Below are positions 3,992-37,174 of a stretch of DNA of 64,000 bases, in pieces. Within the stretch, counting starts at the first letter, position 1. Each line of letters starts with the position of its first letter. Made by a program: the position numbers and the translations under genes. The notes under the pieces are model-generated. The model was not told the DNA's origin and searched no databases. It saw nothing but the letters and a program-made list of their open reading frames with translations. This DNA is from a virus (Duplodnaviria; Caudoviricetes): the IMG/VR virus record IMGVR_UViG_3300026549_000079, positions 3,931 through 67,930 of that record, one strand, 5' to 3'.

Positions 3992-4024
3992 ATGATATTT
4001 TCTTTTTTTTTTGTTGTTCTGATA

Positions 4025-4056
4025 CAAATATATGATATTTTTCCAAATAAAACAAA
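4025..4056 (-). promoter_or_regulatory. Bacteroidota sigma-A type promoter
   Basis: Minus strand TTTG-N20-TATATTTG. Confidence 0.8.
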
Positions 4057-4081
4057 AAAAGCGAGGGAAAAACCTCGCTTT
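4054..4081 (-). terminator. Intrinsic terminator
   Basis: Minus strand AAAGCGAGG-TTTTTC-CCTCGC-TTTTTTT; its U-tail overlaps the -33 box of the next promoter. Confidence 0.8.
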
Positions 4082-11236: not shown

Positions 11237-13021
11237 ATGAAATATATTAAGTTATTTGAAAATCACTCAGGATATAGTGAGTATCTTGCATCAAGTGAAT
11301 ACCTTAGGCCAAATGTATCTCACTGCATTCAGGAGAATGAAGTGCATTATACAGTTCCAATTGATTGGTCAAAGGAATACTTTACAATTGAAAGCCTTGA
11401 AAATAGCAATACAATTTATCTGAAAGCATCAAATAGTGCAGTGGCAAAGGCTGTTTCAGTGTCAACTGATAATGGTGCTACTTGGGCTGAGTACGTATCA
11501 TCAACAGGTGGTAGTGGTACAACACTCGCAACACTTAATAATGGGGATAAACTGCTTGTTAAGGGAGAAAACAGTTCTTATGCAACATCAACCACAGTCT
11601 ATAACCAATTCGACACAACTGGTCAATTTGAAGTTAAGGGTAATATAATGTCACTTATCAGTGGAGACTCTTTTGCAAGTGCTGATGAATTAACAGAAGC
11701 ATATACATTTGTTTATTTATTCCGTGGATGCACAGGTTTAACATTAGCTGTAAACCTTGTATTACCCGCTACAATATTAGCAAGTTATTGTTATTCAAGT
11801 ATGTTCTTTGGTTGTAGAAGTCTCACAGCAGCACCTGAATTGCCCGCAACAACATTAGCAAATAATTGTTATAACTATATGTTCCAAGGTTGCACAAGTC
11901 TGACAACGGCACCTGAGTTACCTGCTACTACATTGACAAAGAATTGTTATGACCATATGTTCCAAGGTTGTTCAAGTCTTACAACAGTACCTGAGTTACC
12001 TGCTACTACATTGACAAAGAATTGTTATGACCATATGTTCTACAATTGTTCAAGTCTTACAACAGTACCTGAGTTACCTGCAACAATATTGTCAAATTAT
12101 TGTTATTCGCAGATGTTCAATGGTTGTACAAGCCTTACAGCAGCACCTAATTTACCTGCTACAACATTGGTAAGTAATTGCTATTCGCAGATGTTCAATG
12201 GTTGTACAAGCCTTACAGCAGCACCTGAACTTCCTGCTACTACATTGACAAATAGTTGCTATAGAGGTATGTTCAATGGTTGTACGAGTCTGACTGTTGC
12301 TCCTGAACTTCCTGCAACAATATTGGCAAATAGTTGTTATCAAAGTATGTTCGGAGGTTGCACAAGTCTGACAGCAGCACCTGAATTACCTGCTACAACA
12401 TTGGCAGATAGTTGTTATGCTAGTATGTTCCGAGGCTGTACTAGCCTGACAACAGCGCCTGAACTTCCAGCTACCACATTGACAAGCAGTTGTTATTCAT
12501 ATATGTTCTCTGGTTGTGCAAGCCTAACAACAGCACCTGAACTTCCAGCTACCACATTGACAAGCAATTGTTATCAGGAGATGTTCAATGGTTGCACAAG
12601 CCTAACAACAGCACCTGAGTTGCCTGCTACAACATTGGCGGCTTATTGTTATGAGAGTATGTTCCATTATTGTCCAAATCTTACAACAGCACCTGAGTTA
12701 CCCGCTACAACATTGGCAAATAATTGTTATGCTAGTATGTTCGGGAATTGTACAAGTCTAACTGTAGCACCAGAACTTCCTGCAACAACATTGACAAATA
12801 GTTGTTATAACTATATGTTCAACGGTTGTTCAAATCTTAATTATATCAAGGCAATGTTCACGACAACACCAAGTGGCAGTTCACCAAATTACTATACACA
12901 AAACTGGGTTAAGGGTGTTGCTTCAACAGGTACATTTGTGAAGAATTCTGCTGCAACGTGGAATGTAACAGGTAGTCATGGTATACCAACAGGATGGGCT
13001 GTTGAAACCGCAACAGCGTAG
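11237..13021 (+). CDS. BspA-like leucine-rich repeat protein (14 repeats of 26 aa)
   Basis: Repeats xAPELPATTLxxxCYxxMFxGCTSLT; leader MKYIKLFEN; C-cap shared with 48321..49655. Confidence 0.85.
   Translation: MKYIKLFENHSGYSEYLASSEYLRPNVSHCIQENEVHYTVPIDWSKEYFTIESLENSNTIYLKASNSAVAKAVSVSTDNGATWAEYVSSTGGSGTTLATLNNGDKLLVKGENSSYATSTTVYNQFDTTGQFEVKGNIMSLISGDSFASADELTEAYTFVYLFRGCTGLTLAVNLVLPATILASYCYSSMFFGCRSLTAAPELPATTLANNCYNYMFQGCTSLTTAPELPATTLTKNCYDHMFQGCSSLTTVPELPATTLTKNCYDHMFYNCSSLTTVPELPATILSNYCYSQMFNGCTSLTAAPNLPATTLVSNCYSQMFNGCTSLTAAPELPATTLTNSCYRGMFNGCTSLTVAPELPATILANSCYQSMFGGCTSLTAAPELPATTLADSCYASMFRGCTSLTTAPELPATTLTSSCYSYMFSGCASLTTAPELPATTLTSNCYQEMFNGCTSLTTAPELPATTLAAYCYESMFHYCPNLTTAPELPATTLANNCYASMFGNCTSLTVAPELPATTLTNSCYNYMFNGCSNLNYIKAMFTTTPSGSSPNYYTQNWVKGVASTGTFVKNSAATWNVTGSHGIPTGWAVETATA
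11753..12842 (+). repeat. Tandem 78-bp coding repeats (14 units)
   Basis: Recurrent cctgagttacctgctactacattg / tgttat / atgttc / tgtacaagtct scaffold; units 3 and 4 are near-identical. Confidence 0.95.
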
Positions 13022-15734: not shown

Positions 15735-18281
15735 ATGGAAAATAGATTACAATTTAGACATCATACTCCGATTTTCGAGACAAGACAGGAGGCAGTTGAC
15801 TATATTTACACCCAAATAAGATATACTGATTCTGGTTTGGCAACAACTGACAGGTCGTATGGCTTTTCATTGCTTGCCGAACCTACCATCCTGAGGTATA
15901 AGAACGAGGAGGATGAATCAAACCCACATGTCATTATTGCAATTGGTGCCGCAACAAACGATGGTGCTGTTGGTTATGGCGATAATCGTTTCTGCATTAT
16001 TGATATAGATAAGACGGAGAAGGAAATTGAAGAGCTTGGTGGTATTGTTGAAGATGCTATTAAAAGTTTGACCCTCATCGTCGCAAACTCAAACACTCTT
16101 AACCTTAACGCTGAAAAGACTGAGAGTGGAACGGTCGTCAGTGGCGACGTGAAACTGGCAAATGGAGTTGTTTTTGATGATATAAGGAGGCAAAATTCAA
16201 TTCTTGAGACAGAAAACGGATTATTCCTGCACGTAAGCATGTCGTATGACAGTGAGAACGATTCAATTAGATTTATTGTAAATGGAGACGTTCTTGATGT
16301 TAAGCTTTCTAACAGCAAGCTTGCAAGTGGTGTATATGACAAGAAGGATGAATCAATTCACCTGTTTAACAATGATGGAAGTGAGGTTGTTATCAATTGT
16401 GAGGAACTTATTGCTGAATGGGGTATTGAAGGTGAGAATTCTAAGACACCTGTTGTGCTGACAAGGGATGAAATCGGATATTCATCGGATGACGGTCATT
16501 ATCATGTAGAACCTTGGCAGGATGTGTTAAGAGCTGATGTAAGACTTAAGGACGAACAAAGGGTACTTCAAGAAGATGGCACGTATAGATATGTGAAAGA
16601 CCCAGAAAGCACCAATATCCTTAACAGGACTGCGGACGGAAGATATCTTTATGTTGATGGAAGAGCCAGTAACATTATTTATTATGATAATGGTGTGAAG
16701 ACAAACGTAAGGGACGCTCTTGATAAGGTTTCAAAAAACAAACCTTCAAGTGATGACAGGAACATTATCCAGTCAAAGGTTGATGGTCTCTTCGCCTCTT
16801 CAAGCCTTGAGTATATCACGTCAGAGAACACCCTTGTATTCAAGGCAAGCGGACAGCCAGAGACGAGATTGAAACTCAATAGCATTGAATTGTTCAAGGA
16901 TATTCATTACGACCCAGCAACAGAAGAACTTGTTATCATTTACGTTGATAACGACAACAACGTACAGTCAGAGAGGATACCTCTTGGCGAAATGCTTAGA
17001 GACTGGGAATTGGAGCCACAGAATGACGGACACAACGTCTGGATTACAAAGACCAGGATTGTCAACGGTAATGACAAGGTTTCAGCTGACGTGAGAATTT
17101 ATGAATCTGAGGACAACATTCTTGTTGAAAAGAATCATGAATTATTCGTTGATGGAAATGCAGATAATATCAAATATGGTGACAATTCAAACGTTAAGGC
17201 TGCTCTTGACCTACTGAACACTTCTAAGGCGGAACATAGTGCCGCAATTAACGAAATTAGCGGAAAAACTGATGCTGCAATCAATGATATTACAAATGAT
17301 GACCACTCTATCAATATTGATAAGGCAAACCCACTAAAGCCAAACATTAGCGTAAGAAGGAGTTCTGAAGTTGAGGATGGCAGGAAAAATATCCTTAAAT
17401 TAAACAACGACGGTTTGTTCGTTAATGTTGATTTATCATACATTGAAGGAGAAAACAAGCTTATTTTCCACACGTCTGGTGAAGATGCTGATAAGGAAAT
17501 CATGCTTAATGGTATGTCAGATATCATTGATATTAGATATGACGAGACAACCGAGGAAATTGTTGTCCAGTACATGGCAAACGGAAGTGAAGTCAAGGAA
17601 TTCAGACTTCCAATTCACCAGATTATCAGGGAGTGGAGAGTTACCGAAGGAACTGATGGAGCAATAAAGCTGATTAAGACTGAAAACCCAGATTATAATC
17701 AGGATGTGCTTAGTGCTTCTGTGATTATTAATACTACACATGATGACAATGCCCTTGTAAATGACCACGGCTCTCTCTATGTAGGCGCAAATGGAATTGT
17801 TGAAAAATCAACTTCTTTCCAATGTCTGAGCGCTGAAACCAAGGCAGTTGAGGAATTACTTGGTGTAGAAGGAAACTGCGCTGAAACAATTTCCTATCCA
17901 TCTAAGGATGGAAGTATTCTTTCTGGTGCAACAACTTATGCTGAGGCAGATTCAATCCTTGAAGGTGCTATAAATGAGTTAAGAGAAGAAATTAGTGGTA
18001 TTGACACTGATATAACTGGAGATGTGACAAATACCGTAGAGGTTAAGTCTTATCTCGATGAAGAAGGAAAGAGACACGTTTCGGCAGATGTTAGACTAAA
18101 GGATGGTGGAGACGCCGTTGTTGTTGATAACGACAACGCACTTGGTGTTGTTGAGAATGAGGGTCTTTATCTTAGCAAGACGTGGAATTGCGGAGAATAT
18201 TCAGACGGAGATTCAGAGGACGTTTTAGATGACGACAGTTATATGAATTATAAGAGGCTTAACGGTGATGTTGAACCATAA
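15735..18281 (+). CDS. Long tail fibre/shaft-like protein
   Basis: 848 aa; recurring (V/L)(S/R)ADV(R/K)(L/I)...NIL...LFV modules; follows a fibre gene. Confidence 0.6.
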   Translation: MENRLQFRHHTPIFETRQEAVDYIYTQIRYTDSGLATTDRSYGFSLLAEPTILRYKNEEDESNPHVIIAIGAATNDGAVGYGDNRFCIIDIDKTEKEIEELGGIVEDAIKSLTLIVANSNTLNLNAEKTESGTVVSGDVKLANGVVFDDIRRQNSILETENGLFLHVSMSYDSENDSIRFIVNGDVLDVKLSNSKLASGVYDKKDESIHLFNNDGSEVVINCEELIAEWGIEGENSKTPVVLTRDEIGYSSDDGHYHVEPWQDVLRADVRLKDEQRVLQEDGTYRYVKDPESTNILNRTADGRYLYVDGRASNIIYYDNGVKTNVRDALDKVSKNKPSSDDRNIIQSKVDGLFASSSLEYITSENTLVFKASGQPETRLKLNSIELFKDIHYDPATEELVIIYVDNDNNVQSERIPLGEMLRDWELEPQNDGHNVWITKTRIVNGNDKVSADVRIYESEDNILVEKNHELFVDGNADNIKYGDNSNVKAALDLLNTSKAEHSAAINEISGKTDAAINDITNDDHSINIDKANPLKPNISVRRSSEVEDGRKNILKLNNDGLFVNVDLSYIEGENKLIFHTSGEDADKEIMLNGMSDIIDIRYDETTEEIVVQYMANGSEVKEFRLPIHQIIREWRVTEGTDGAIKLIKTENPDYNQDVLSASVIINTTHDDNALVNDHGSLYVGANGIVEKSTSFQCLSAETKAVEELLGVEGNCAETISYPSKDGSILSGATTYAEADSILEGAINELREEISGIDTDITGDVTNTVEVKSYLDEEGKRHVSADVRLKDGGDAVVVDNDNALGVVENEGLYLSKTWNCGEYSDGDSEDVLDDDSYMNYKRLNGDVEP

Positions 18282-18887
18282 GGAGATAAAATTGATGGAC
18301 ATGAATATGTTGACCTCGGTCTTCCAAGTGGAGCAAAGTGGGCTTCAATGAATGTTGGAGCAAACTCTGTAACGGATAGTGGTTTTTTCTTCGCATGGGG
18401 AGAAACAGACGGTTATTCAGATGAAGAGGCTGGTACTGTCAAGAGATTCACGTTCTTAGATAGCGATTACAAATATGGTGAAGGAACCCCGTTTAGTAAG
18501 TATGATACTGACGGTTTAACGGAACTTGAACCTTCGGATGATGGTGTTCAGCAAGCCTGGGGAGGTTCTTGGGTAACGCCAACAAAGAGCGACTTTGACG
18601 AACTCATTTCAAACACCACGTTTGCGTGGGTCAACAACTACCAGAACTCTGGTGTTCCTGGAGCAACGTTTACTGGAAACGGCAATGTTTTATTCATACC
18701 AGCAGTTGGTTATGCTTATGATGGAACAATTGGTGACAACGGTGCGCTTGGAATCGTGTGGGCTTCTTCGCTGAACACGGAAGGAACTGATTATGTATAT
18801 GGGTTTAGCGTAGACGATGCTGAGGCTGGCGTACATAACTACTTTGAACGTTGTAGTGGTCTCAAACTTCGTGGTATATCCAAATAA
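18282..18887 (+). CDS. YVDLGLPSG-family (C-type lectin-fold, DUF1566-like) domain, in frame behind the TAA of the fibre gene
   Basis: The frame is open from 18282 (GDKIDGHEYVDLGLPSGAKWASMNVGA...WGET...WVTPTKSDFDEL...LFIPAVG...VWASS); the first ATG (18348) lies inside the conserved motif. Confidence 0.75.
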   Translation, partial: GDKIDGHEYVDLGLPSGAKWASMNVGANSVTDSGFFFAWGETDGYSDEEAGTVKRFTFLDSDYKYGEGTPFSKYDTDGLTELEPSDDGVQQAWGGSWVTPTKSDFDELISNTTFAWVNNYQNSGVPGATFTGNGNVLFIPAVGYAYDGTIGDNGALGIVWASSLNTEGTDYVYGFSVDDAEAGVHNYFERCSGLKLRGISK

Positions 18888-18895
18888 ATAATAAG

Positions 18896-18962
18896 AAAAA
18901 AAAGAGGGAACGATATATCCTTGGTTATTTAAAACTAAGAGATATATCGTTCTTTTTTTTTT
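18896..18962. terminator. Long bidirectional terminator at the convergence of the late and early blocks
   Basis: GAACGATATATC-CTTGGTT-ATTTAA-AACTAAG-A-GATATATCGTTC with flanking A- and T-runs. Confidence 0.8.
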
Positions 18963-18973
18963 AGGAAATATGT

Positions 18974-19315
18974 TTATAACTTTCCGTTTTCTTTTAGCCA
19001 AATTACCATTTCAAATACTGCATCAATGGGGTCTAAATACCAATCAGAACACTTGAGTTCTACAGGTAGAGTAACTCGGCATAATTCTGTAGAAGACCCT
19101 CTTTCCAAACGTGCTGATTTAGGGAGCATGTTGAACAGTGCAGTAAGACTCCAAGCACGAATATGCTCTTCATCTTCATTAAAATCACCATCATCCATTG
19201 TTTCTATATAGTACCTTAAACTCGTAGGCCACCAATACATATCAGCGGTATTTATATCAATCCCAAGTTCTATTAATTTCTTGGATTGTTCTATAGATGT
19301 ACAAATTTTATCCAT
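18974..19315 (-). CDS. Hypothetical protein, KICT/QSKKLIELG family (copy 1)
   Basis: MDKICTSIEQSKKLIELGID..TADMYW; paralog at 25358..25561. Confidence 0.7.
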   Translation of the reverse strand: MDKICTSIEQSKKLIELGIDINTADMYWWPTSLRYYIETMDDGDFNEDEEHIRAWSLTALFNMLPKSARLERGSSTELCRVTLPVELKCSDWYLDPIDAVFEMVIWLKENGKL

Positions 19316-19318
19316 AAT

Positions 19319-19459
19319 TTAATCTTTAAATTTTCCGCATTCTTTCATGTGCCAAAGAGTGTCAATAGCGTGTAATAAATAATATTTATCTTGGTTGCTA
19401 TATGTATGATTATAGGCTTCTTTCAAAAAATCAATTACTTCCTCTACTTTATTTGACAT
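19319..19459 (-). CDS. Small hypothetical protein (46 aa)
   Basis: Manual translation MSNKVEEVIDFLKEAY...; fills the gap exactly. Confidence 0.5.
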   Translation of the reverse strand: MSNKVEEVIDFLKEAYNHTYSNQDKYYLLHAIDTLWHMKECGKFKD

Positions 19460-19462
19460 AAA

Positions 19463-19864
19463 TTATTCTTTATAAGGATTATTATTTTCTGTCACGGCAA
19501 TTGCTAAACCTTTCTCAATTAACCCTCTGTAGTCAAAATGATATTTATTATAAAAATCAATTGCAAACACACTACTTGCAGCACTTTCTATTGTATGTCC
19601 TTCTGGGCTCTCAAGGGCTTTTAGTTCAAGCTCAAATATTTTTTCAAATTCAATTTCTTCTTCCTCAGTCATAGAAGACATTGGACGAAGGTATGGCTTA
19701 AATGTACCTATTCTATGTTCCCACCCATCATTATCAATGAAATCAGCTCCATCATATCCTATAATAGTAAATGGTGGATATTCATTGTCTTCCCATGCTT
19801 TAATTTCATATTGTAACCTACTACAGAGGTCTTTTATCAACAATTCTTTTTCTTCCTGTGTCAT
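19463..19864 (-). CDS. Hypothetical protein, MTQEEK family
   Basis: MTQEEKELLIKDLCSRL...KPYLRPMSSMTEEE...HFDYRGLIEKGLA. Confidence 0.75.
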   Translation of the reverse strand: MTQEEKELLIKDLCSRLQYEIKAWEDNEYPPFTIIGYDGADFIDNDGWEHRIGTFKPYLRPMSSMTEEEEIEFEKIFELELKALESPEGHTIESAASSVFAIDFYNKYHFDYRGLIEKGLAIAVTENNNPYKE

Positions 19865-19867
19865 ATC

Positions 19868-21079
19868 TTATCCACCTTTTAGGTTCTTTAAATCTTCATA
19901 AAGTTCTTCAAGATAATCTGGTTCAAAAGTAAAAGAATCTATTGCTCTTTTAAGGTCATGCAACTGGTCATCACTTGGCTTCCATCCGTATCTTTCTTTG
20001 AGTGATTTGAGCCACTTAATTTCTTTGAAATATCTTTCAGCTAATTGTTCTGTAGGATAATCTTCAAGACGTTTTTGTATATCATTTATGATTCCCGTAA
20101 CTATCTTCTCATCCTCTTTGCCCCATTTGGCAGGCTTATGAGGAATTAAAGACAGCAAGTATGCTGCACGTTCTTTTACTTCTTCTACTGTGGCATCATT
20201 ATCATCTATAGCATCCCTGTAATCATCCATCATATCTTTTACAGCATCTTCAAATTCCGTCAGTTTGAGCTGCTCAACCTTCTTCAACTCTTTCTTCTCA
20301 GCATCCCACTCGTATTCTGATTCCTTCATTTTCTCAAAAAGAATGGTTCGTTCGTCTTTAGTGGCAGGGCAAACATCGTTTGGAATACTAATCAAACCAT
20401 CTGTAGCAACGTTTTTAGTTACATAGTTCATGTTTACACAAGCATAGTAATGCTCCTTATCTTTATAAATCCATATAAGACGATGAGATGGAGAATTGAG
20501 TACATCACCATCCTTTGTATCTTGGATAGTCCAGTACGTAAGGTCTTTTTCAACTTCTTCTATAGGATAATTTGCTTCTACTCCATCATAACAAAGCACA
20601 CGATATAATCCGTCATTAACCGAAAGTATTTTAAAAATGTTGCCGCTACTGATTGCTCTTACCCAATCACCAACCTTAAACTTTGGCTCAACCTTATCAT
20701 TAGGCTTTGATTCACTATAAAGACAATTATTAACAATCTCATTATATTCTTTAGAAGATATACCAAGACTTTCTTCTGGCGATTTCATTTCAATAACAGG
20801 CTTATTTTCACCTTGCTTTTTAAGCCAAGCAATAAACCTATCGCATTCAGGGAAACCAGCAAGTCTTGATTTTACAAAGTCAATAAGTTCTTTTCTTATT
20901 TTCTCACTATCATTCTCTTTGAGTTCGGGGAAATAGTATTCTATGTCTGTTACTATTTCCTTTTTTAGCACCCATAAATCAGTTTCTTCGTGGTTGCTTA
21001 GTGCATCACGAAACTTTCGCATATTTCCAATAGCCTCATCATAGGCTCTTGCTTTCTCTTCTATTGATAGTTCTTTCAT
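19868..21079 (-). CDS. Modular hypothetical protein, EKARAYDEA family
   Basis: IEEKARAYDEA, EKIRKELI, DKVEPKFKVGD, WTIQDTKDGDVL and W-x-x-EDE modules. Confidence 0.7.
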   Translation of the reverse strand: MKELSIEEKARAYDEAIGNMRKFRDALSNHEETDLWVLKKEIVTDIEYYFPELKENDSEKIRKELIDFVKSRLAGFPECDRFIAWLKKQGENKPVIEMKSPEESLGISSKEYNEIVNNCLYSESKPNDKVEPKFKVGDWVRAISSGNIFKILSVNDGLYRVLCYDGVEANYPIEEVEKDLTYWTIQDTKDGDVLNSPSHRLIWIYKDKEHYYACVNMNYVTKNVATDGLISIPNDVCPATKDERTILFEKMKESEYEWDAEKKELKKVEQLKLTEFEDAVKDMMDDYRDAIDDNDATVEEVKERAAYLLSLIPHKPAKWGKEDEKIVTGIINDIQKRLEDYPTEQLAERYFKEIKWLKSLKERYGWKPSDDQLHDLKRAIDSFTFEPDYLEELYEDLKNLKGG

Positions 21080-21086
21080 GGTTTCA

Positions 21087-22394
21087 CTATTTTAATTTTT
21101 TTAAACACTCCAAAAGTTCAGATAGTACATCGTACTTAATATCTTTTATAGATAGAACATCGCTCAAAGCATTTATCTGTTTTTCAGTTGGCTTCCACTG
21201 CTTCTGAAATCTCAGCGATTTAAGCCAATCTATATCTTGTTCTTGTTGATAAATCTCGTCAGTATCTCCTTTTCGATTTTTCCAAATAAAATCTGAAATA
21301 CGATTAACTCTTTTCTCATCCTCTTCACTCCACTCTTGTTTAAAGGATTCGAGCCAGCGGTGAGCTTTTATCATGTCTATACCTTTTTCTTCAAGGTATT
21401 TTGCAGATTCTTTACATGTAATTGCATTACCAATATAACGAACCATATCCTCATCTTCATCACTCCACTCAGTAGGCTTTAGTTGCACTTTATCTTTGAT
21501 AGATTTAAACCACTTGAGTTCTTCTTCAACTTTTGTTGGTAATTGTCCCATATAGCATTTTCCAAGAACACCAAGAGTTCTAGTATACATACTTTCATCC
21601 TCTTCATTCCATTCGATAGATTGCAGAGCATCTGCTTTTCCCCTTTCGTATTCTGCATTAAAGAAATCAGATAACATGGGGCGTGTGTTCTCAATCTTCT
21701 TCAACTCTTTCTTTTCAAAGTCAAATGTATATCCAGCATCAGCCATTGCTTTCATCAAAGTTTCACGCTGTTCTTCGGTTGCTGGGTGAACTACTGCATC
21801 GATAAGGCAGAAACATTCGTTTTTACCTATATCATCATAGAATCTTCCATCATCGGTGTTTATATGACAATATCCCATTAAACGTGTGTCATTGATGAAA
21901 TGGAATATGAAGATATTAGAACCATTTACAAGCACATCACCTGATTTTGCATATTCGATAGTCCAAAGATGAAATGTCTTATTTACCCATTCTATTGTAG
22001 GACGCGATTCACCTCCTTCTACACCTTCTAAGAGATAAAATTGATTTAGGATTCCTTCTATTTTCCAGACGTTACCACAATTATCCACAACCAAATCACC
22101 AACCTTAAACTTTGGTTCAACCTTATCAGCAGGGGTTTGTTTCCCTTGCTTTTCAAGCCAAGTAAGTATTTCATCTACTTCCCATTTATGTAAGGCATAG
22201 CCACCTTGCTCATGCGACTTCTTTACAAGATTAATAAGTTTTTCCCGAATCTTATCATCATCACTCTCATGGAGTTCTGAAAAGATATATTCCATTCGCT
22301 TGATTTCGGCGAGGTCACTGCTATATTTGTGTATCTTCCTTGCTCTTTCAAGAGCCTCATCATAGGCTCTTGCCTTTTCTTCTATTGTCTTCAT
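21087..22394 (-). CDS. Modular hypothetical protein, EKARAYDEA family
   Basis: Same module order as 19868..21079, with three WxEEDE repeats. Confidence 0.7.
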   Translation of the reverse strand: MKTIEEKARAYDEALERARKIHKYSSDLAEIKRMEYIFSELHESDDDKIREKLINLVKKSHEQGGYALHKWEVDEILTWLEKQGKQTPADKVEPKFKVGDLVVDNCGNVWKIEGILNQFYLLEGVEGGESRPTIEWVNKTFHLWTIEYAKSGDVLVNGSNIFIFHFINDTRLMGYCHINTDDGRFYDDIGKNECFCLIDAVVHPATEEQRETLMKAMADAGYTFDFEKKELKKIENTRPMLSDFFNAEYERGKADALQSIEWNEEDESMYTRTLGVLGKCYMGQLPTKVEEELKWFKSIKDKVQLKPTEWSDEDEDMVRYIGNAITCKESAKYLEEKGIDMIKAHRWLESFKQEWSEEDEKRVNRISDFIWKNRKGDTDEIYQQEQDIDWLKSLRFQKQWKPTEKQINALSDVLSIKDIKYDVLSELLECLKKLK

Positions 22395-22396
22395 AA

Positions 22397-22558
22397 TTAA
22401 TCAACCCTAAGTAAATAATCGCTACAATGATGTATCTCTTCTCCACATAAGCCCAAGCTTACATTAACTTGTGGAGAGCCACACCCATCATAATCACACC
22501 AAACATTAACTTTTAGATTCTCTCTTAAAAAGTTAAACAGATAATCTTTATCAATCAT
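22397..22558 (-). CDS. Small hypothetical protein (53 aa)
   Basis: Manual translation MIDKDYLFNFLRENLKVNVWCDYDGCG... Confidence 0.5.
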   Translation of the reverse strand: MIDKDYLFNFLRENLKVNVWCDYDGCGSPQVNVSLGLCGEEIHHCSDYLLRVD

Positions 22559-22573
22559 ACTTTAATTTATTTT

Positions 22574-22660
22574 TAGTTAGGAATATTGGAATTGAACCAA
22601 TCAGAGTCATCATCTTGAATCAGCATCTTGCCTTCTCTGACCACCAAACTGGTATTCCCG
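22574..22660 (-). ncRNA. tRNA-like element (acceptor stem + T-arm, no canonical anticodon arm)
   Basis: CGGGAAT/ATTCCTA acceptor (C1.A72 mismatch), ATTGG-TTCAATT-CCAAT T-arm, CAGAG/CTCTG helix, 3' A-CTA; fills an intergenic gap. Confidence 0.45.
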
Positions 22661-22666
22661 TTCCAT

Positions 22667-22861
22667 TTACAATACTCTATTTATATGATTATCAAAATCA
22701 ATTTCCTTATAACTTACAATTTCACCATCTTCATCATTTTTAAAAGATGGATATTTACATATTGTTCTCAACATCTCATTTTCTGTGTCTGCCAATACAA
22801 ACAAATCATAATATGAAATACCAAAATGATATGTTTTAATGTGTACCTTCCAAAGTCTCAT
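22667..22861 (-). CDS. Hypothetical protein
   Basis: 64-aa ORF in the packed early block. Confidence 0.55.
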   Translation of the reverse strand: MRLWKVHIKTYHFGISYYDLFVLADTENEMLRTICKYPSFKNDEDGEIVSYKEIDFDNHINRVL

Positions 22862-22865
22862 AATG

Positions 22866-23102
22866 TTATTTTAATTTAATAGGTTCATCACTATAAGTCA
22901 TTTCTTTACCAATGAGATATTTAATGGTTTCTTTTGGTAATAATACACCCCGTCTATATTCAGGTTCAACAGAATTAGCCGTCCATCTTTGACCCCAAGT
23001 AACTTCCAAATCCATGTTTGGAAAATTTCTATGTGGTTTGACTGGAAATATTCTTTCATCTCCATGTCCATCAACACATATCCAAGATTCTTCTTTATTC
23101 AT
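22866..23102 (-). CDS. Hypothetical protein
   Basis: 78-aa ORF. Confidence 0.6.
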   Translation of the reverse strand: MNKEESWICVDGHGDERIFPVKPHRNFPNMDLEVTWGQRWTANSVEPEYRRGVLLPKETIKYLIGKEMTYSDEPIKLK

Positions 23103-23103
23103 A

Positions 23104-23235
23104 TTATTCCCTATATTTAAGATTATCTAACCATTCCATTTCTTCACTGTAGGAAATACCATGTAACTTTTCAAGTTGAAGAAGAGCAATCTTAATCTCT
23201 TCTACTTTGCCAAAATCACTTGCACTCCATTTCAT
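23104..23235 (-). CDS. Small protein (43 aa) resembling a stand-alone C-terminal module of the EKARAYDEA family
   Basis: Manual translation MKWSASDFGKVEEIKIALLQLEKLHGISYSEEMEWLDNLKYRE; first gene after a promoter. Confidence 0.45.
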   Translation of the reverse strand: MKWSASDFGKVEEIKIALLQLEKLHGISYSEEMEWLDNLKYRE

Positions 23236-23271
23236 AATATATTATTATTTTTTAATTGTTTAAATACATTA

Positions 23272-23303
23272 CAAATATAGGATATTTTTTTGAAATAACC
23301 AAA
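23272..23303 (-). promoter_or_regulatory. Bacteroidota sigma-A type promoter
   Basis: Minus strand TTTG-GTTATTTCAAAAAAATATCC-TATATTTG. Confidence 0.85.
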
Positions 23304-23342
23304 TAATCCCTTATTTCAGTATCATTTTTCATAACAAGTTTT

Positions 23343-23723
23343 TTAAATTAAATTTTCAAGTATGTATTTCAACGATGCCTCAACAGCATCTTCGTAAGAA
23401 TCAACATAAGTAGTTCCAACAATTTCTCTTGTAATATATTTAACAACGCCAAGAGGAATTGTTTCTATAGTAATATGATAACCTTTAGGACCCCTTGCAA
23501 TTCCAATATGTAATTTATGTACTTCCCTCAACCAAGCCATCGCCATTTGATGAGTCGGAGCTAATGCACAAAAATCATCACAAGCTTCTTCGCTATTAAT
23601 ATAACCTACATGATTAAAAGATAAATAACCTTCATTATCATATTTTAACCAACAAGATTCATCAAACCCTTTCTCTTTGAGCAGCTTGGCTACTTCAAAT
23701 GAAACGTAAGCTTCTTCTATCAT
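23343..23723 (-). CDS. Hypothetical protein, AYxSFEVAKLLKEKGFDE family
   Basis: Conserved N-terminus, PTHQMAMAWLREVH and YEDAVEA. Confidence 0.75.
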   Translation of the reverse strand: MIEEAYVSFEVAKLLKEKGFDESCWLKYDNEGYLSFNHVGYINSEEACDDFCALAPTHQMAMAWLREVHKLHIGIARGPKGYHITIETIPLGVVKYITREIVGTTYVDSYEDAVEASLKYILENLI

Positions 23724-23728
23724 ATTAT

Positions 23729-24088
23729 TTAATTATTTTTTTTAAGACAATATTTTAATGCTTGTTCAACTGTTTCCTCATAAGAAGGAAAACCTTTCCT
23801 TAAAGGATTCTCATAATAGTTATCACCTTCCCATAAAGAGAAATAACAACTTGTATTAGAATAAGGTTCAATAACTATAAAAATATTATGTACTTCCCTC
23901 AACCAAGCCATTGCCATTTGATGGGTTGGGGCATTATAAAACTTATCACCAATCTGGGTATTAGTAAACACAGTTCCTCTGTATAGTTCTTTACTGTCAA
24001 ACTTGTAGAAGTGTTGAACAGGTTCATCAAATCCTTTCTCTTTCAGCAGCTTTGCCACTTCAAAAGAACAATACGCTTCTTTAACCAT
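23729..24088 (-). CDS. Hypothetical protein, AYxSFEVAKLLKEKGFDE family
   Basis: Tandem paralog of 23343..23723. Confidence 0.75.
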   Translation of the reverse strand: MVKEAYCSFEVAKLLKEKGFDEPVQHFYKFDSKELYRGTVFTNTQIGDKFYNAPTHQMAMAWLREVHNIFIVIEPYSNTSCYFSLWEGDNYYENPLRKGFPSYEETVEQALKYCLKKNN

Positions 24089-24091
24089 AAC

Positions 24092-24292
24092 TTATTTTAC
24101 ATTTAAATCATTTTCAATTTCTAACTCCCAAACAGTTTCTTTCTGGTTAAGATATTCATATATCCCATCCAGAGTCATTTGTTTGAATTGTGGATATATT
24201 TCGCGCATATCCATAACATATTTAAGAAAGGTTCCGACTTGCTGATGTATTCCGATTTTTTCTCGGATATTATAATATTCTTGTCGTGTCAT
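24092..24292 (-). CDS. Hypothetical protein
   Basis: 66-aa ORF. Confidence 0.55.
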   Translation of the reverse strand: MTRQEYYNIREKIGIHQQVGTFLKYVMDMREIYPQFKQMTLDGIYEYLNQKETVWELEIENDLNVK

Positions 24293-24566
24293 GGGCTTTC
24301 ATGTATTTCTCGTTTTGTTCTCTGTTTAGTTTCTTGATATATTTCTTTAATTCTCTTATTTGTTCTTCAAGATTCTTTAATACTTGACCTCTAATTTTTA
24401 TTTCTTCTATTGTTTGCTTTTCCCAAATATCTTTATCTAAATTCGGATAATCATATGGGTCCCAAAATTCTTTTTTTATGATATCAATACTAACTTGGAT
24501 ATACCGATATTTTTCTTTTAAACCTTTAAGTTCCTTTATTTTGTTACTAAGTTCTTGTTCCTTCAT
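24270..24566 (-). CDS. Hypothetical coiled-coil protein bounded by 20-bp direct repeats
   Basis: 98-aa ORF; ggctttcat(g/a)tatttctcgt at 24294-24313 and 24574-24593. Confidence 0.6.
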   Translation of the reverse strand: MKEQELSNKIKELKGLKEKYRYIQVSIDIIKKEFWDPYDYPNLDKDIWEKQTIEEIKIRGQVLKNLEEQIRELKKYIKKLNREQNEKYMKAHDTTRIL

Positions 24567-24652
24567 TTAACACGGCTTTCATATATTTCTCGTACTCTTC
24601 ATCTGTATGGTTCGGGTGTTTCTTATGAAATTTAATAGTTAATTTACAACCA

Positions 24653-24775
24653 TTAATATCTCCTGTACCATAATACCCACAACCTAAGTACAGCAAATTC
24701 ATATAGCTCATCATATTTTTGACGAGTTAAATCCTTTGAATGGAATATCTTTGTGTACTTACTCTGTATAATCAT
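24653..24775 (-). pseudogene. 5' remnant of a TnpB-like (IS200/IS605/IS607) nuclease gene
   Basis: MIIQSKYTKIFHSKDLTRQKYDELYEFAVL followed by an unrelated 10-aa tail. The first 30 aa match, from memory, the N-terminus of a gut-phage TnpB-like family; not verified by search. Confidence 0.5.
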
Positions 24776-24777
24776 AT

Positions 24778-24939
24778 TTAGTCCTCCAAATTATCGACAT
24801 CTTGGCTTGTATGCCCTAATAATTCTCTGTACAAAACAATATCATCTTTGTTAAAAGATTCTTTGGCTTTAAATTGTTCATACATATTTTTAAGCCAAGA
24901 AATGTCTCCATTTTCTCTTATTTTAATATCAATGCCCAT
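24778..24939 (-). CDS. Small hypothetical protein (53 aa)
   Basis: Manual translation MGIDIKIRENGDISWLKNMYEQF... Confidence 0.5.
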   Translation of the reverse strand: MGIDIKIRENGDISWLKNMYEQFKAKESFNKDDIVLYRELLGHTSQDVDNLED

Positions 24940-25243
24940 ATATTATTTCCATTTCTTCAGTAGTCATTTCTTCAATGATAATGCTGTATTCTTTATTTGA
25001 CTCTATTTTATTCTTTACTAGTTTCAAGTGATATAAACAATCTATTAGTGAATGATTTCCAAAAGAATCCGTATTGTCTTCTGCTGATATACAAATATCT
25101 TTTTCATTCATATTTTCATCAAACATTTTATATACACAAACATCTGACACGCTTTCAACAGCACAATATATAGTGTATTCATTACGCATATATCCATACT
25201 GTTCTATATATTTTGTTTTGAATCCTCCAGTTTTAAATGCCAT
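24929..25243 (-). CDS. Hypothetical protein
   Basis: 104-aa ORF. Confidence 0.6.
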   Translation of the reverse strand: MAFKTGGFKTKYIEQYGYMRNEYTIYCAVESVSDVCVYKMFDENMNEKDICISAEDNTDSFGNHSLIDCLYHLKLVKNKIESNKEYSIIIEEMTTEEMEIIYGH

Positions 25244-25361
25244 CTTTTTCTATTTTTAATTCACAATGCCGACAAGACAAATGGTTATTTACATCCATAT
25301 GGGAACAAAAAGTTGGAATACACTTTTGTTTATACAATTTACAGTACTTATAATATTTCAT
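25233..25361 (-). CDS. Small Cys-rich protein (42 aa)
   Basis: Manual translation MKYYKYCKLYKQKCIPTFCSHMDVNNHLSCRHCELK...; overlaps both neighbours. Confidence 0.45.
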   Translation of the reverse strand: MKYYKYCKLYKQKCIPTFCSHMDVNNHLSCRHCELKIEKDGI

Positions 25362-25561
25362 TGTTCTTGTTTTTGTTTACGTTTCTTTCTATTTTCTTGT
25401 GCTCTCAATGAGTATACCTTACCACTAAAACTTGCAATTAACATCGTTTCTATATAGTACCTTAAACTTGTAGGCCACCAATACATATCAGCCGTGCTAA
25501 CATCAATTCCAAGTTCAATTAACTTCTTAGATTGGTTTATATCCGTGCAAATCTTATTCAT
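25358..25561 (-). pseudogene. Chimera: KICT-family 5' half fused to a probable IS607 TnpA (serine recombinase) C-terminus
   Basis: The first 40 aa match 18974..19315 up to YYIETM. They are followed by LIASFSGKVYSLRAQENRKKRK, which resembles the IS607 TnpA C-terminal pattern (I/L)xxFSGKLYGxRSxKxKK. Confidence 0.55.
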
Positions 25562-25790
25562 TTCCTATTTTTATTAGTTCTGGTCTAACATTAAAATCGT
25601 TACATTCTTTTGCTACCTTGCTATAATTTCCAATGTAGCCTCCGTCTATATCTTTGTTAAGTTTAAAACAACGCCCAGTACAAGCATGAAGTCCATAACC
25701 TTCAAAATGCGTACAAAAGTTACATGCTTTAACTTCATCCAAATCTCTATATATATCTCCGTTTGTTCCGATTCCAACTCTAATTTTCAT
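25554..25790 (-). CDS. Small Cys-rich hypothetical protein
   Basis: CNFC-x8-C-x3-C...ECNDF. Confidence 0.6.
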   Translation of the reverse strand: MKIRVGIGTNGDIYRDLDEVKACNFCTHFEGYGLHACTGRCFKLNKDIDGGYIGNYSKVAKECNDFNVRPELIKIGNE

Positions 25791-26166
25791 AAGGCTTATT
25801 ATCTTTTGTTACTGGAATTGCTAATTTTTTCTCAATTAACCCACGGTAGTCAAAATGGTGGGCATTGAGCCAATCAATTTGATTAACATTTGGAATACGA
25901 ACACCATTTTCTACTTCAATTCCAGGAGCGATATGCTCATATTCTTTTCTTTCTTCACTGGTCATCGAAGACATTGGACGAAGGTAGGGTTTAATTTCTG
26001 TATCACCATCTTCATCATTGAGCAACTGCTCAATATGGTCAGGTTCAAGGGTTGTGTTAATATACGTCCCTTCACTCATAACCCACCATGTAAGTCCTAT
26101 TTTAACGTCATAAGCCAACCTACCGCATAGGTCTTTAAGTAAAAGTGATTTTTCTTCTTGTGTCAT
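25780..26166 (-). CDS. Hypothetical protein, MTQEEK family
   Basis: MTQEEKSLLLKDLCGRL...IKPYLRPMSSMT. Confidence 0.75.
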   Translation of the reverse strand: MTQEEKSLLLKDLCGRLAYDVKIGLTWWVMSEGTYINTTLEPDHIEQLLNDEDGDTEIKPYLRPMSSMTSEERKEYEHIAPGIEVENGVRIPNVNQIDWLNAHHFDYRGLIEKKLAIPVTKDNKPYEN

Positions 26167-26663
26167 AAGGTATTCTCCTCAATTAGCTTTTTCTTTTCTT
26201 CTTCGGTATAATCAAAGTTGTCTATGTTAGCAACTAGATTTTCCCATAGTTTTCCAGTTACATCAAGTGTAGCTGAGTTCCACCAATAGCCTGCGCCAAA
26301 CCATCCGCCTTGTTTTGTTCTTACGTATACCCCAAGTCCCTCATTTTCTCCTTTATAAGTGATAACAAACTTATCAGAATGCGTAGAATAAAGCCAATAG
26401 GACAATTTTACTGATTTGACATATCGTTCAAACAATTCAGGATATTTCTTTCTAAATTGGATGAACCCAAGAACCTCATCAACTTGAATAATGAAGTGAC
26501 GAGAGAATCTAATTTTTCCATCATCAAAACAATGATACTTTTTTCCAACTTCTGGAACTGGCTCAAGGTATTTCTTACGACTATATAAGACAGTCCTATC
26601 AGGAATAGGATACATATTTCTTCGTTGACGAGGAAAATAACCTCTTGAATTCTTTTTGCTCAT
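26163..26663 (-). CDS. Hypothetical protein
   Basis: 166-aa ORF. Confidence 0.65.
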   Translation of the reverse strand: MSKKNSRGYFPRQRRNMYPIPDRTVLYSRKKYLEPVPEVGKKYHCFDDGKIRFSRHFIIQVDEVLGFIQFRKKYPELFERYVKSVKLSYWLYSTHSDKFVITYKGENEGLGVYVRTKQGGWFGAGYWWNSATLDVTGKLWENLVANIDNFDYTEEEKKKLIEENTL

Positions 26664-26664
26664 A

Positions 26665-26874
26665 TCATTCTATTAACATTTTAATAAAATCATAAAAAAT
26701 GGAAAAAATGCAAAGTATAAAATAAACAGGCCAAAATAGAATATAGGTTAATCTAAGTAATACTCTCCATATACGTTTAAGTTTAGCAAATTCTTCTGTT
26801 TCAGAAACTTTCATACCCAAGAATGTTATAAATCCGCACAGAAGATAAAAGAATGTAATAATTATAATAGTCAT
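26665..26874 (-). CDS. Small membrane protein (2 TM)
   Basis: Two hydrophobic segments; ILFWP motif. Confidence 0.6.
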   Translation of the reverse strand: MTIIIITFFYLLCGFITFLGMKVSETEEFAKLKRIWRVLLRLTYILFWPVYFILCIFSIFYDFIKMLIE

Positions 26875-26889
26875 AATTAAATCAAATTT

Positions 26890-27036
26890 TTAAATACGTT
26901 TTATTGCATTAGGCTTACAAAGAACTTCCACAACCTCATCTTTACCTACATCTATTTGAACGATAGCTGTGATAATTTTATTAAACAGGTCTTTATCTGT
27001 TGAATTAGACTTGATTGTTAAATCAATTTGAACCAT
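26890..27036 (-). CDS. Small hypothetical protein (48 aa)
   Basis: Manual translation MVQIDLTIKSNSTDKDLFNKII... Confidence 0.45.
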   Translation of the reverse strand: MVQIDLTIKSNSTDKDLFNKIITAIVQIDVGKDEVVEVLCKPNAIKRI

Positions 27037-27039
27037 ATT

Positions 27040-27417
27040 TTAAATCAAGTTCGTAAGTACATATTCCAATGCTGCTTCAATAGCATCTTCATATTTCCAA
27101 TTAAAGTTTGTACATCCAAGTTTTACATATTTACATTCCTTATCAAGAATTGTATAACTGAAATGATATTTACCATTAAGGTCTATACTTGTACTGATTT
27201 CAATAAAGATATGGTGAACTTCTCTCAACCAAGCCAACGCCATTTGATGGGTTGGTACATCTAATACGAACTCTCTTTTTTCAGACTTGGTAACTCTTGG
27301 AAAATTAGTTGGTATTAAATATTTATTTCTATTATACATGGCATGACATACTTCATCAAATCCTTTCTCTTTAAGTAGTTTGGCTACTTCAAAAGAACAA
27401 TATGCTTCTTTTATCAT
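27040..27417 (-). CDS. Hypothetical protein, AYxSFEVAKLLKEKGFDE family
   Basis: Third paralog; PTHQMALAWLREVH. Confidence 0.75.
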   Translation of the reverse strand: MIKEAYCSFEVAKLLKEKGFDEVCHAMYNRNKYLIPTNFPRVTKSEKREFVLDVPTHQMALAWLREVHHIFIEISTSIDLNGKYHFSYTILDKECKYVKLGCTNFNWKYEDAIEAALEYVLTNLI

Positions 27418-27435
27418 AAATTATTTTATTTCTGT

Positions 27436-27570
27436 TTATAAGTTTCCTGTGTATCTTGCTAGGTCTTCACAAACACCACAATAACCTATGTAAGTATAGT
27501 CACCACATAGTTCTCCTTGTTTATAATACCAATATTCTGGAATTTCCTTTCCACACTTAATACATTTCAT
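27436..27570 (-). CDS. Small Zn-ribbon protein (44 aa)
   Basis: Manual translation MKCIKCGKEIPEY...YCGVCEDL. Confidence 0.5.
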   Translation of the reverse strand: MKCIKCGKEIPEYWYYKQGELCGDYTYIGYCGVCEDLARYTGNL

Positions 27571-27576
27571 AAATTT

Positions 27577-27936
27577 CTATTTTGTTACATTATACATTTC
27601 TTCAGGTGCTTCAAGAGCTAACCCCATAGGAATTAAACCACGATAGTCAAACATTTTCTTGTTTAGCCAATCAATTTCTTTTGAATCACCTATAAATTTA
27701 GAATTAGCCAATTCACATAATTCATCATATTCTTCCTCCGTCATTGAACTCATTGGACGGAGATAGGGTTTTATACTTTCTATACGAAATGAGTCTGAAT
27801 CAACATCTAAATACACTTCATGCCCGTTGATACCCATTAAAATGCATGTCTCTTTTTCATAGAGACAAACTTTTACTTTAAAAGGCAACCTTGCACAAAG
27901 GTCTACCAATAATAATTTTTTTTCTTCCTGTGTCAT
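27577..27936 (-). CDS. Hypothetical protein, MTQEEK family
   Basis: Start reassigned to MTQEEKKLLLVDLCARL at 27936. Confidence 0.75.
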   Translation of the reverse strand: MTQEEKKLLLVDLCARLPFKVKVCLYEKETCILMGINGHEVYLDVDSDSFRIESIKPYLRPMSSMTEEEYDELCELANSKFIGDSKEIDWLNKKMFDYRGLIPMGLALEAPEEMYNVTK

Positions 27937-27985
27937 ATTGTTATTCTCCTTTAAGTTTTTCTGGTTGTTCACTAATGTCCTGAGG

Positions 27986-28345
27986 TTAAAGATTTTCAAG
28001 CCAGACAACCATATCATTGCAGTCTACATTATTATGATTCATTACACCTTGACCAATATTTTCAAGTACCAAATCAATAAGTGCTTCCTTCACCTTCTCA
28101 TCATCACTCTTACGGAGTTCTGGCACATTATCACTCACCCAATTCTGTAATGTAGGATTTTCTTCCATTGCTCTTTTTAAACCAAGGTCATAGAAAAATC
28201 TTGCCGTTGCTTCAATGTCACCCAAGGTAATTTTATAAGTTTCTGGATGAAAACCACGCATAGTTGTGTAATGCTTCTTTATTGTTTCCATCCATTTTTC
28301 CAAATCAAAATCATTTCCATTCATAGTTTCATTTTTCTTTGACAT
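27986..28345 (-). CDS. Hypothetical protein carrying the ELxxSDDEK module of the EKARAYDEA family
   Basis: PELRKSDDEKVKEALIDLV...MVVWLE. Confidence 0.6.
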   Translation of the reverse strand: MSKKNETMNGNDFDLEKWMETIKKHYTTMRGFHPETYKITLGDIEATARFFYDLGLKRAMEENPTLQNWVSDNVPELRKSDDEKVKEALIDLVLENIGQGVMNHNNVDCNDMVVWLENL

Positions 28346-28348
28346 AAC

Positions 28349-28726
28349 TTATTCTTTATATGGATTATTCTCTTCTGTAACGGCAATTGCCAATCCTTTT
28401 TCAATTAAGCCACGATAGTCGAAGTGGCGTGCATTGAGCCAATCTAAAAGTGGTAAAGACAAATTCTCAAAATCCCCAGCCCATTCAAGTTCTTCGTATT
28501 TATCAAACTCTTCCTCAGTCATCGAAGACATTGGACGGAGATAGGGTTTAATGTCAACAATTTCGTTATAATAAAATGCGTCTCTTAAAACATCACCATA
28601 GTTATGTTCTAAATCCAATACACCTTCTTCTGTTGTTCCGTCTTTAAGCCAAACCTTGACTTTAACATGGTATGGTAATCTTGAACAAAGGTCTTTGAAT
28701 ATTAATTCTTTTTCTTCTTGTGTCAT
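28349..28726 (-). CDS. Hypothetical protein, MTQEEK family
   Basis: MTQEEKELIFKDLCSRL...; C-terminus nearly identical to 19463..19864 (GLIEKGLAIAVTExNNPYKE). Confidence 0.75.
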   Translation of the reverse strand: MTQEEKELIFKDLCSRLPYHVKVKVWLKDGTTEEGVLDLEHNYGDVLRDAFYYNEIVDIKPYLRPMSSMTEEEFDKYEELEWAGDFENLSLPLLDWLNARHFDYRGLIEKGLAIAVTEENNPYKE

Positions 28727-30367: not shown

Positions 30368-30406
30368 ATACTTTTTTTTTTAGAAATTAGTTTTCTTCTT
30401 ACAATG

Positions 30407-30438
30407 CAAATATACGATATTTTTCCAGAAAAAACAAT
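30407..30438 (-). promoter_or_regulatory. Bacteroidota sigma-A type promoter
   Basis: Minus strand ATTG-N20-TATATTTG. Confidence 0.75.
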
Positions 30439-30451
30439 TTTTTAAGATATT

Positions 30452-34526: not shown

Positions 34527-34596
34527 AACTTTTTCTTCTTTTTCTAAACATTATGTTCGTATAGTTTGATATTTTACCATTTAATTCAGGTTATTA

Positions 34597-34628
34597 CAAA
34601 TATATGGTTTTTTTCCTTAATATCCAAA
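34597..34628 (-). promoter_or_regulatory. Bacteroidota sigma-A type promoter
   Basis: Minus strand TTTG-N20-TATATTTG. Confidence 0.85.
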
Positions 34629-34636
34629 AGAAACAT

Positions 34637-37109: not shown

Positions 37110-37139
37110 GTTCTTAATTTTTTTCTTTAAAAGACAATA

Positions 37140-37171
37140 CAAATATATGATATTTTTTCGAAATATCCAAA
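37140..37171 (-). promoter_or_regulatory. Bacteroidota sigma-A type promoter
   Basis: Minus strand TTTG-GATATTTCGAAAAAATATCA-TATATTTG. Confidence 0.85.
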
Positions 37172-37174
37172 TTT

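Follow-up and report, generated by a model that had tools for sequence, protein, structure and literature searches.

The locus described here is a fibre-like gene of an uncultivated tailed phage (Caudoviricetes) in which one in-frame stop codon separates a long upstream protein, the shaft, from an intact domain, the tip, that follows in the same reading frame. It lies in a 64,000-nucleotide stretch of DNA, the window, which corresponds to positions 3,931 to 67,930 (G000:C1:3931-67930) of the linear 67.9-kb virus record IMGVR_UViG_3300026549_000079, and all coordinates given below are those of the window unless another source is named. The record has an estimated completeness of ~20%, and the window is a fragment of a giant gut/rumen phage, a jumbo myophage, on whose 67.9-kb contig genes for a tail sheath and a family-B DNA polymerase are also found. 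The shaft open reading frame (ORF; 15735-18281) begins at ATG 15735 and is closed after 848 codons by TAA 18279-18281. The junction reads GAA CCA TAA GGA GAT AAA ATT GAT GGA CAT GAA TAT GTT GAC CTC GGT, and beyond the stop the same frame stays open for 201 codons, to a second TAA at 18885-18887. An earlier note, made from the sequence alone, had described a tail-fibre shaft cut off from its lectin-like tip by this lone TAA, and had considered stop read-through or a suppressor tRNA, a recent nonsense mutation and a separately started tip subunit as explanations.

None of 20,000 shuffles of the 603-nt stretch after the stop remained open in frame, and the other two frames of that stretch contain 7 and 23 stops; chance openness is therefore excluded. 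Moreover, alignments with hundreds of homologous domains cover 97-99% of the 201 residues, so that coordinates, shuffles and homologue alignments all confirm the lone stop and the 201 open codons behind it. The stop is placed 5 codons past the native family end of the shaft and 5 codons ahead of the domain boundary, and the first in-frame ATG past it, at 18348, encodes tip residue 23. No other gene split by an in-frame stop was found in the 68 kb, the sole long same-frame ORF pair whose second member lacks its own start being this one.

The tip is modelled by AlphaFold2 (AF2) over 201 aa with a predicted local distance difference test score (pLDDT) of 97.1 and a predicted template modelling score (pTM) of 0.92. 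In structural comparisons with VIA-align, the model matches 8oks, the C-terminal domain of Bdellovibrio Bd2740 (Z 8.0), and 8q4e, the C-terminal domain of Legionella Lcl (Z 7.4, root-mean-square deviation 2.9 over 106 residues), as well as TvpA, TaqVP and Mtd, variable proteins of diversity-generating retroelements (DGRs; Z 6.4-6.6). DGR variable proteins, formylglycine-generating enzyme (FGE) and C-type lectins, those of animals included, score Z 5-6.7, and the structural list is uniformly of C-type-lectin or FGE fold, at moderate Z values. Foldseek with the tip model against the PDB returned nothing significant, the tip profile had 0 matches among PDB sequences, and the 201-aa sequence has no match in Pfam even at E <= 10. 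Its homologue P0247 reaches 29 bits against PF07603, for which the cut-off is 34.9, and hundreds of tip homologues that are 40-50% identical to it carry precomputed PF07603 assignments. Because the tip's own sequence lies below the Pfam threshold, its membership of PF07603 is by transitive homology only; together with the predicted fold, this homology supports a place for the tip in the DUF1566/Lcl_C C-type-lectin-like superfamily. The label of a DUF1566-type lectin tip thus stands for fold and descent, and does not extend to a direct Pfam assignment.

The tip belongs to a very large family, of which 25,539 cluster representatives are reached at E <= 1e-3. In the more than 100 multidomain homologues the domain always starts at (N/D)GHEYVDLGLPSG, written here as (N/D)GHEYVDLG. 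The most conserved stretch of the family is Y9-A21, in which G13, W20 and A21 are invariant in 60 sequences, and these residues form the first two beta-strands of the tip model and lie upstream of Met23. Translation from ATG 18348 would therefore yield a decapitated fold, just as the earlier note had argued, since Y9-A21 and the first two strands would be lost.

The tip has neither a start codon of its own nor an N-terminal adaptor. Stand-alone homologues in related phages bear a 40-50 aa N-terminal module, MKYLKKF..H..Y......PNVSxC....EVHYNP, and an adaptor of this kind (MKYIKLFENH...PNVSxC..EVHYNP) also heads the window's genes at 11237 and 48321; it is missing from the tip. As a module of ~45 aa, M(K/E)YIKLFENH..Y.EY....L(R/K)PNVSHC.QENEVHY, it is found at window positions 11237-11380 and 48321-48460, in P0242-P0274 and at L071:1345-2055, and it is common to otherwise unlike binding proteins, namely two leucine-rich repeat (LRR) proteins of the window and stand-alone lectin-fold proteins of related phages. 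To judge by this distribution, it seems to be a shared adaptor for virion docking. In a complete 409-kb relative the tip homologues are separate genes of 236 aa and 304 aa elsewhere in the genome, and a search of cluster representatives with the junction as query was dominated by multi-copy lectin-domain proteins, with no shaft-tip fusions among the matches.

The shaft has 674 homologues, many of them on phage contigs of 350-414 kb, and its synteny with the upstream genes for 681-aa and 727-aa proteins is kept in relatives. It carries internal repeats and varies in length. AF2 models the monomer with low confidence (pLDDT 56), as a beta-rich protein with long helices at residues 487-516, 685-709 and 735-755, and no Pfam or PHROG family matches the protein. 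Its neighbours are adhesin-like: one gene encodes a BspA-LRR protein, another a protein that contains a Fib_succ_major domain. It is plausible that the shaft is a fibre-like host-recognition protein, judging by its context, its repeats, its variation in length and these neighbours; the name tail-fibre shaft, given to it earlier, fits the context and has no family match behind it.

The native end of this protein is well defined. The closest 24 homologues (65-90% identity, 99% coverage) end in ...SYMNYQRLS and a stop, the pattern of the family overall is ...YMNYxRL(S/N) and a stop, and remoter homologues end in ...YMNYNRM and alike. In L003 and L037, which are 68% identical, an intrinsic terminator and convergent genes follow directly after the shaft stop, and in the DNA alignment the homology of both to the window breaks at 18262, just after CTT A. 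A tip domain was found beside the shaft at 0 of 40 related loci within flanks of 4-6 kb. The tip is joined to the shaft through the residues NGDVEP, a junction shared by P0002, P0004 and P0005, in which (EP)n linkers follow. P0004 and P0005 form with P0006 a sister clade whose members are ~81% identical to the window shaft and 99% identical to one another. Their ends differ: P0006 stops after QRLS, P0005 stops after QRLNGDVEP(EP)4TPRA, and P0004 continues as QRLNGDVEP(EP)4TP(EP)4... Viewed at the protein level, the terminal RA of P0005 is what would be expected from a +1 insertion in GAG CCT GA(A), and P0005 is possibly a second, independent truncation within the linker.

Strain variants of the gene (P0361-P0373) were compared as proteins, within the 90% protein cluster around P0001. 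P0362 (848 aa) is identical to the window, stops after NGDVEP, and occurs in JGI, Logan and ENA data on contigs up to 325 kb; P0368, also of 848 aa, stops at the same residue and has 14 substitutions. P0361, P0364, P0366 and P0373 are 179-aa tip ORFs that begin at Met23, with 0, 4, 5 and 5 substitutions, respectively, on 10 contigs in total. The most frequent variants are tipless forms of 843 aa that end in ...YMNYKRLN, six in number including P0363, which together are found on 29 contigs, the longest of 368 kb. Because these tipless forms are the commonest, the tipless fibre is viable. P0371 (1050 aa) is an uninterrupted fusion, ...NGDVEP-E-GDKIDGHEYVDLG..., with 48 other substitutions. It is collinear with the window and has Glu in place of the TAA (stretch ...VEPEGDKIDGHEYVDLG..., junction ...NGDVEPEGDKIDGHEYVDLG...); the sense codon that the earlier note had thought worth seeking in relatives is thus present, as seen at the protein level. 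Across the variants the shafts are 96-99.9% identical and mosaic, with, for example, a shared block at residues 393-444, and this mosaicism indicates recombination among co-circulating strains.

The transcription unit closes after the tip, at 18898-18962, and not after the TAA; no terminator was found between the TAA at 18279-18281 and the tip. GC content at third codon positions is 0.343 in the tip, equal to that of the shaft (0.354). Since a terminator follows the tip and none follows the TAA, and since the composition of the tip equals that of the shaft, the tip is an ameliorated C-terminal add-on. The features of the locus are collected in Table 1.

Table 1. Features of the shaft-tip locus, in window coordinates
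Feature	Coordinates	Strand	Remarks
Fibre-like shaft, 848 codons	15735..18278	+	N-terminal ~500 aa conserved across related jumbo phages
Acidic shaft tail, residues 817-848, predicted disordered	18183..18278	+	pLDDT 31-38; holds ...YMNYKRL
Start of the added module, codons N-G-D-V-E-P	18261..18278	+	homology to tipless relatives breaks at 18262
In-frame TAA	18279..18281	+	Glu (E849) at the same place in the natural fused variant P0371
Remainder of linker, G-D-K-I	18282..18293	+	includes ATT 18291, the sole near-cognate in-frame start candidate
Complete tip of predicted C-type-lectin fold, DUF1566/Lcl_C-like superfamily	18294..18884	+	AF2 model and homologues with PF07603
179-aa ORF from first ATG	18348..18887	+	lacks the invariant N-terminal strands; relatives P0361, P0364, P0366, P0373
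Bidirectional intrinsic terminator, hairpin flanked by A-run and T-run	18898..18962		-32.5 kcal/mol, z = -8.7

We consider it probable, though by no means secure, that an accessory receptor-binding tip is silenced here by a nonsense allele, GAA to TAA, which segregates among the strains and lies in the linker between the domains. The locus would then be one gene by descent, for a structural, fibre-like protein of a jumbo myophage, and its lineage would have extended the native C-terminus ...YMNYxRL by a short acidic Glu-Pro linker and a binding domain of C-type-lectin fold. A single-base change of GAA (Glu) to TAA in this linker would end translation after residue 848, and the virion would carry a tipless fibre, as in most relatives. 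The intact tip coding sequence would stay in the same transcript, untranslated or barely translated, and reversion, or recombination with strains that carry the fused allele, could turn the tip on again. At the level of the population, the site would be an on/off polymorphism of an accessory receptor-binding module. The stop is most simply derived in this way because GAA and TAA are one base apart and because Glu continues the EPE of the sister linkers: an E at the stop position prolongs the EPE pattern of the (EP)n linkers in P0002, P0004 and P0005. The direction of the mutation, from Glu to stop, the lack of tip translation and an effect of tip loss on adsorption or host range are what the comparison of alleles leads us to infer.

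Several observations weigh against this interpretation. The stop is on two shaft haplotypes (P0362, P0368) and is implied on four tip haplotypes, and the fused haplotype is just one of those sampled. Borne by at least two haplotypes of the shaft and four of the tip, the nonsense mutation is not brand new, so that of the earlier proposal of a recent nonsense mutation (e.g. GAA to TAA) that switched host range, the mutation itself is favoured by the Glu of P0371, its recency is not, and a change of host range would be its consequence by inference. The stop-bearing tips are free of decay, all of their differences being at positions that vary in the family. The fused P0371, for its part, has W160R (residue 1009) at a Trp kept in 53 of 59 homologues, which could be a loss of function, a change of specificity or an assembly error. 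Finally, a random tolerated nonsense mutation would hit such a linker spot only ~5% of the time. Given the multi-haplotype stop, the undecayed tips and the linker position, there is room for an arrangement that is maintained and partly expressed.

One such arrangement, which we regard as unlikely, is a maintained leaky stop, at which some ribosomes would read UAA, by near-cognate decoding or with a phage tRNA encoded off the contig, to give virions with mostly tipless fibre subunits and a few that bear the lectin tip, like the A1 protein of Qbeta; the peptide that covers the stop in such a product would be VEP-x-GDKIDGHEYVDLGLPSGAK. Besides the presence of the stop on several haplotypes, exactly in the linker, it draws on a downstream domain that is intact and retains all conserved residues and on the inclusion of the tip in the transcription unit of the shaft. 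UAA is the tightest stop codon, however, and also the commonest here, closing 41 of 61 genes, so that an ochre suppressor would extend most phage proteins; in addition, the sister strain P0371 simply carries Glu, and most close relatives manage without the tip. In favour of a phage tRNA, related jumbo phages carry ~44 tRNAs, one of them with a CTA anticodon. In the 409-kb relative, which has 44 tRNA matches, 16 loci that take in most of these were run through ARAGORN, and the tRNAs so examined had that one CTA anticodon and no TTA. The 67.9-kb contig contains no tRNA of any kind by ARAGORN or Rfam, the tRNA region of this phage being off the contig, and neither ARAGORN nor Rfam supports a tRNA-like element at 22574-22660 as a suppressor. 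RNA structure at the stop is not evident in 18260-18400 (z = -1.39; 21 of 200 shuffles fold as well), and the stop context, UAA then G, is not a leaky one. The one suggestive feature is that the nascent chain ends in Glu-Pro: a C-terminal Pro-Pro interferes with termination in E. coli (PMC3834316). That this effect would extend to Glu-Pro, and to the present host, is our own surmise. Read-through or a suppressor tRNA, the first of the earlier suggestions, thus finds no positive support in the stop codon usage, the tRNA search or the RNA folding. A version in which selection keeps a UAA that is tight but not absolute in a Glu-Pro-UAA-G linker, with a minority of subunits lectin-tipped and with the Glu and 843-aa alleles as the other settings of a three-state switch, is in our judgement improbable; were it true, low-level expression of the tip would make this the first double-stranded DNA phage with a structural protein extended by read-through of UAA.

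The tip might instead be a separate 198-aa subunit, free or bound non-covalently to the fibre, made by reinitiation or a non-AUG start at ATT 18291 and coupled to the TAA 10 nt upstream. This ATT is in frame, 3 codons ahead of the domain boundary, with AAGGAG 5 nt before it; many genes of this phage meet in stop-then-start junctions of a few nucleotides, several haplotypes keep the tip ORF intact, and adaptor-free stand-alone homologues of ~200 aa exist (e.g. P0247, P0264). We nevertheless hold such a subunit to be quite improbable. Gene starts here are ATG in 58 of 61 cases and TTG in 3, with no ATT, every confident start being an ATG, and Shine-Dalgarno cores precede 6 of 61 genes (9.8%) against a background of 8.2%. 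As these cores are not enriched in this phage, the AGGAG, which is part of the codons GGA GAT, carries no weight, and the canonical starts nearest after it (TTG 18292, ATG 18295) are out of frame and open an ORF of only ~19 codons. The stand-alone homologues of related phages moreover bear the N-terminal adaptor that the window tip lacks, and the orthologue in P0371 is a fusion; the ATT start proposed earlier is weakened accordingly. The 179-aa ORF from ATG 18348, reported by gene callers (P0361 and others), would as a real second gene encode an N-terminally shortened lectin domain, a prospect that we rate as very slight. Without Y9-A21, the invariant residues G13, W20 and A21 are missing from it, as are the two opening strands of the fold, although the domain in hundreds of homologues always begins with (N/D)GHEYVDLG; because the most conserved stretch lies upstream of Met23, this ORF is not credible as a protein, and what gene finders call here is not credibly a gene. 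The TAA could also be a sequencing or assembly error in a genome that encodes the 1050-aa fusion, as TAA and GAA are one base apart and a fused form exists. ORFs identical to both the 848-aa and the 179-aa ORF recur, however, in JGI/IMG, Logan and ENA assemblies, the distinct haplotype P0368, with tip ORF P0364, stops at the same residue, and the same stop upstream is also implied by two more 179-aa tip haplotypes. With assemblies of independent origin and the stop shared by a second haplotype, an error is very unlikely. Under the segregating nonsense allele that we favour, the locus should be described as one disrupted fusion.

Two other forms of decoding were set aside. Genome-wide recoding of TAA is excluded, since 41 of 61 genes have TAA as their terminal codon and each of the three stop codons serves normally at gene ends; genes that end in TAG have just 0-46 open codons past the stop, and their stops look genuine. 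A ribosomal hop from CCA 18276 to CCA 18324 was rejected, because its product would lack the conserved YVDLGL strand. The CTA tRNA mentioned above (L066:1500-1576) is of the amber-suppressor type, is labelled tRNA-Pyl by ARAGORN and belongs to G001, the 409,537-bp relative behind L002. The tRNA matches of G001 cluster at ~124-165 kb, and three have irregular anticodon loops.

In Bacteroidota phages the DUF1566/Lcl_C superfamily supplies binding tips and DGR targets, DUF1566 itself being reported as a DGR target of Bacteroides phages (PMC8143477, PMC5758913), and the earlier note had taken the tip for a possible target of this kind. The 67.9-kb contig (~20% of the genome) contains no match to the reverse transcriptase family PF00078, and among the 24 repeat families of the window no direct repeat touches 18282-18887. 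With neither a reverse transcriptase nor a template/variable repeat pair in the contig, DGR targeting of the tip was rejected.

Directly downstream of the tip, in window 18974-28726, the minus strand carries small-gene families in 2-4 copies, and this region is wholly unlike that downstream of the shaft in L003. Being repeat-rich and unlike L003, it shows that the fibre gene abuts a hypervariable zone. A motif of ~55 nt occurs in five copies, at 4003-4057, 23250-23304, 30385-30439, 34575-34629 and 37118-37172. Its centre is ACAAATATA(T/C/G)GATATTTTT, and its reverse complement contains TATATTTG, which fits TAnnTTTG, the consensus of Bacteroidota promoters at -7. The five copies are probably minus-strand promoters, and the motif hints at a Bacteroidota host. 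Tandem arrays of a 78-nt (26-aa) repeat, with 13 units at 11683-12918 and 7 units at 48800-49567, lie inside BspA-type LRR genes, their units being 60-85% identical within and between arrays. Searches of phage records with megablast and tblastn gave no close match, the exact junction 21-mer had 0 matches in viral contigs, and the shaft query had no match in genome contigs; with the tip as query, genome contigs gave matches that are just 33-38% identical, in Bacteroidales and Paludibacteraceae proteins from metagenome-assembled genomes.

The closest known analogue is the side tail fibre gene stf of phage lambda, reportedly whole in Ur-lambda; in laboratory lambda PaPa a frameshift divides it into two ORFs. 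By this analogy, a point lesion in a fibre gene has in both cases left one ORF upstream and a silent one downstream, strains with the intact allele occur alongside strains with the broken one, and the phage is viable, with only an accessory adsorption function lost. Unlike in stf, the lesion in the window is a nonsense codon placed exactly within the linker that leads to an add-on lectin domain, the product upstream of it is the native full-length protein of most relatives, and the broken allele is found in natural metagenomic populations, on several haplotypes. With the PF07603/DGR-type tips (Mtd, TvpA, TaqVP, 8oks) the window tip shares the fold, the start (N/D)GHEYVDLGLPSGxxWA and a C-terminal position on a fibre-like carrier; it differs from them in having no Pfam match and in the lack of a reverse transcriptase or template/variable repeat in the 68-kb contig.

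Qbeta A1 is a programmed read-through extension of a virion protein, and programmed frameshifts add C-terminal domains to phage structural proteins. As in Qbeta A1, a structural protein, a stop and an in-frame extra domain are found here on one transcript, but the known bacterial-virus case has a leaky UGA and a conserved stop, whereas the present stop is UAA, gives way to a sense codon in a sister strain and was found to have no stimulatory signal. Gut phages that recode stops, with TAG read as Gln and TGA as Trp (e.g. PMC9523058), share with the present phage a gut setting with a Bacteroidota-type host, and a relative of the phage encodes a tRNA with a CTA anticodon. Unlike those phages, this one has one in-frame stop in 68 kb, a TAA, and all three stops end genes normally.

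Most likely, then, the in-frame TAA is an ordinary, though well-documented, nonsense polymorphism rather than a new decoding trick. The locus offers a natural example of receptor-binding modules being gained by and switched off from phage fibres: in one uncultivated jumbo-phage population, three states are found at one site, with no tip, with a fused tip, and with a tip silenced by a single base.

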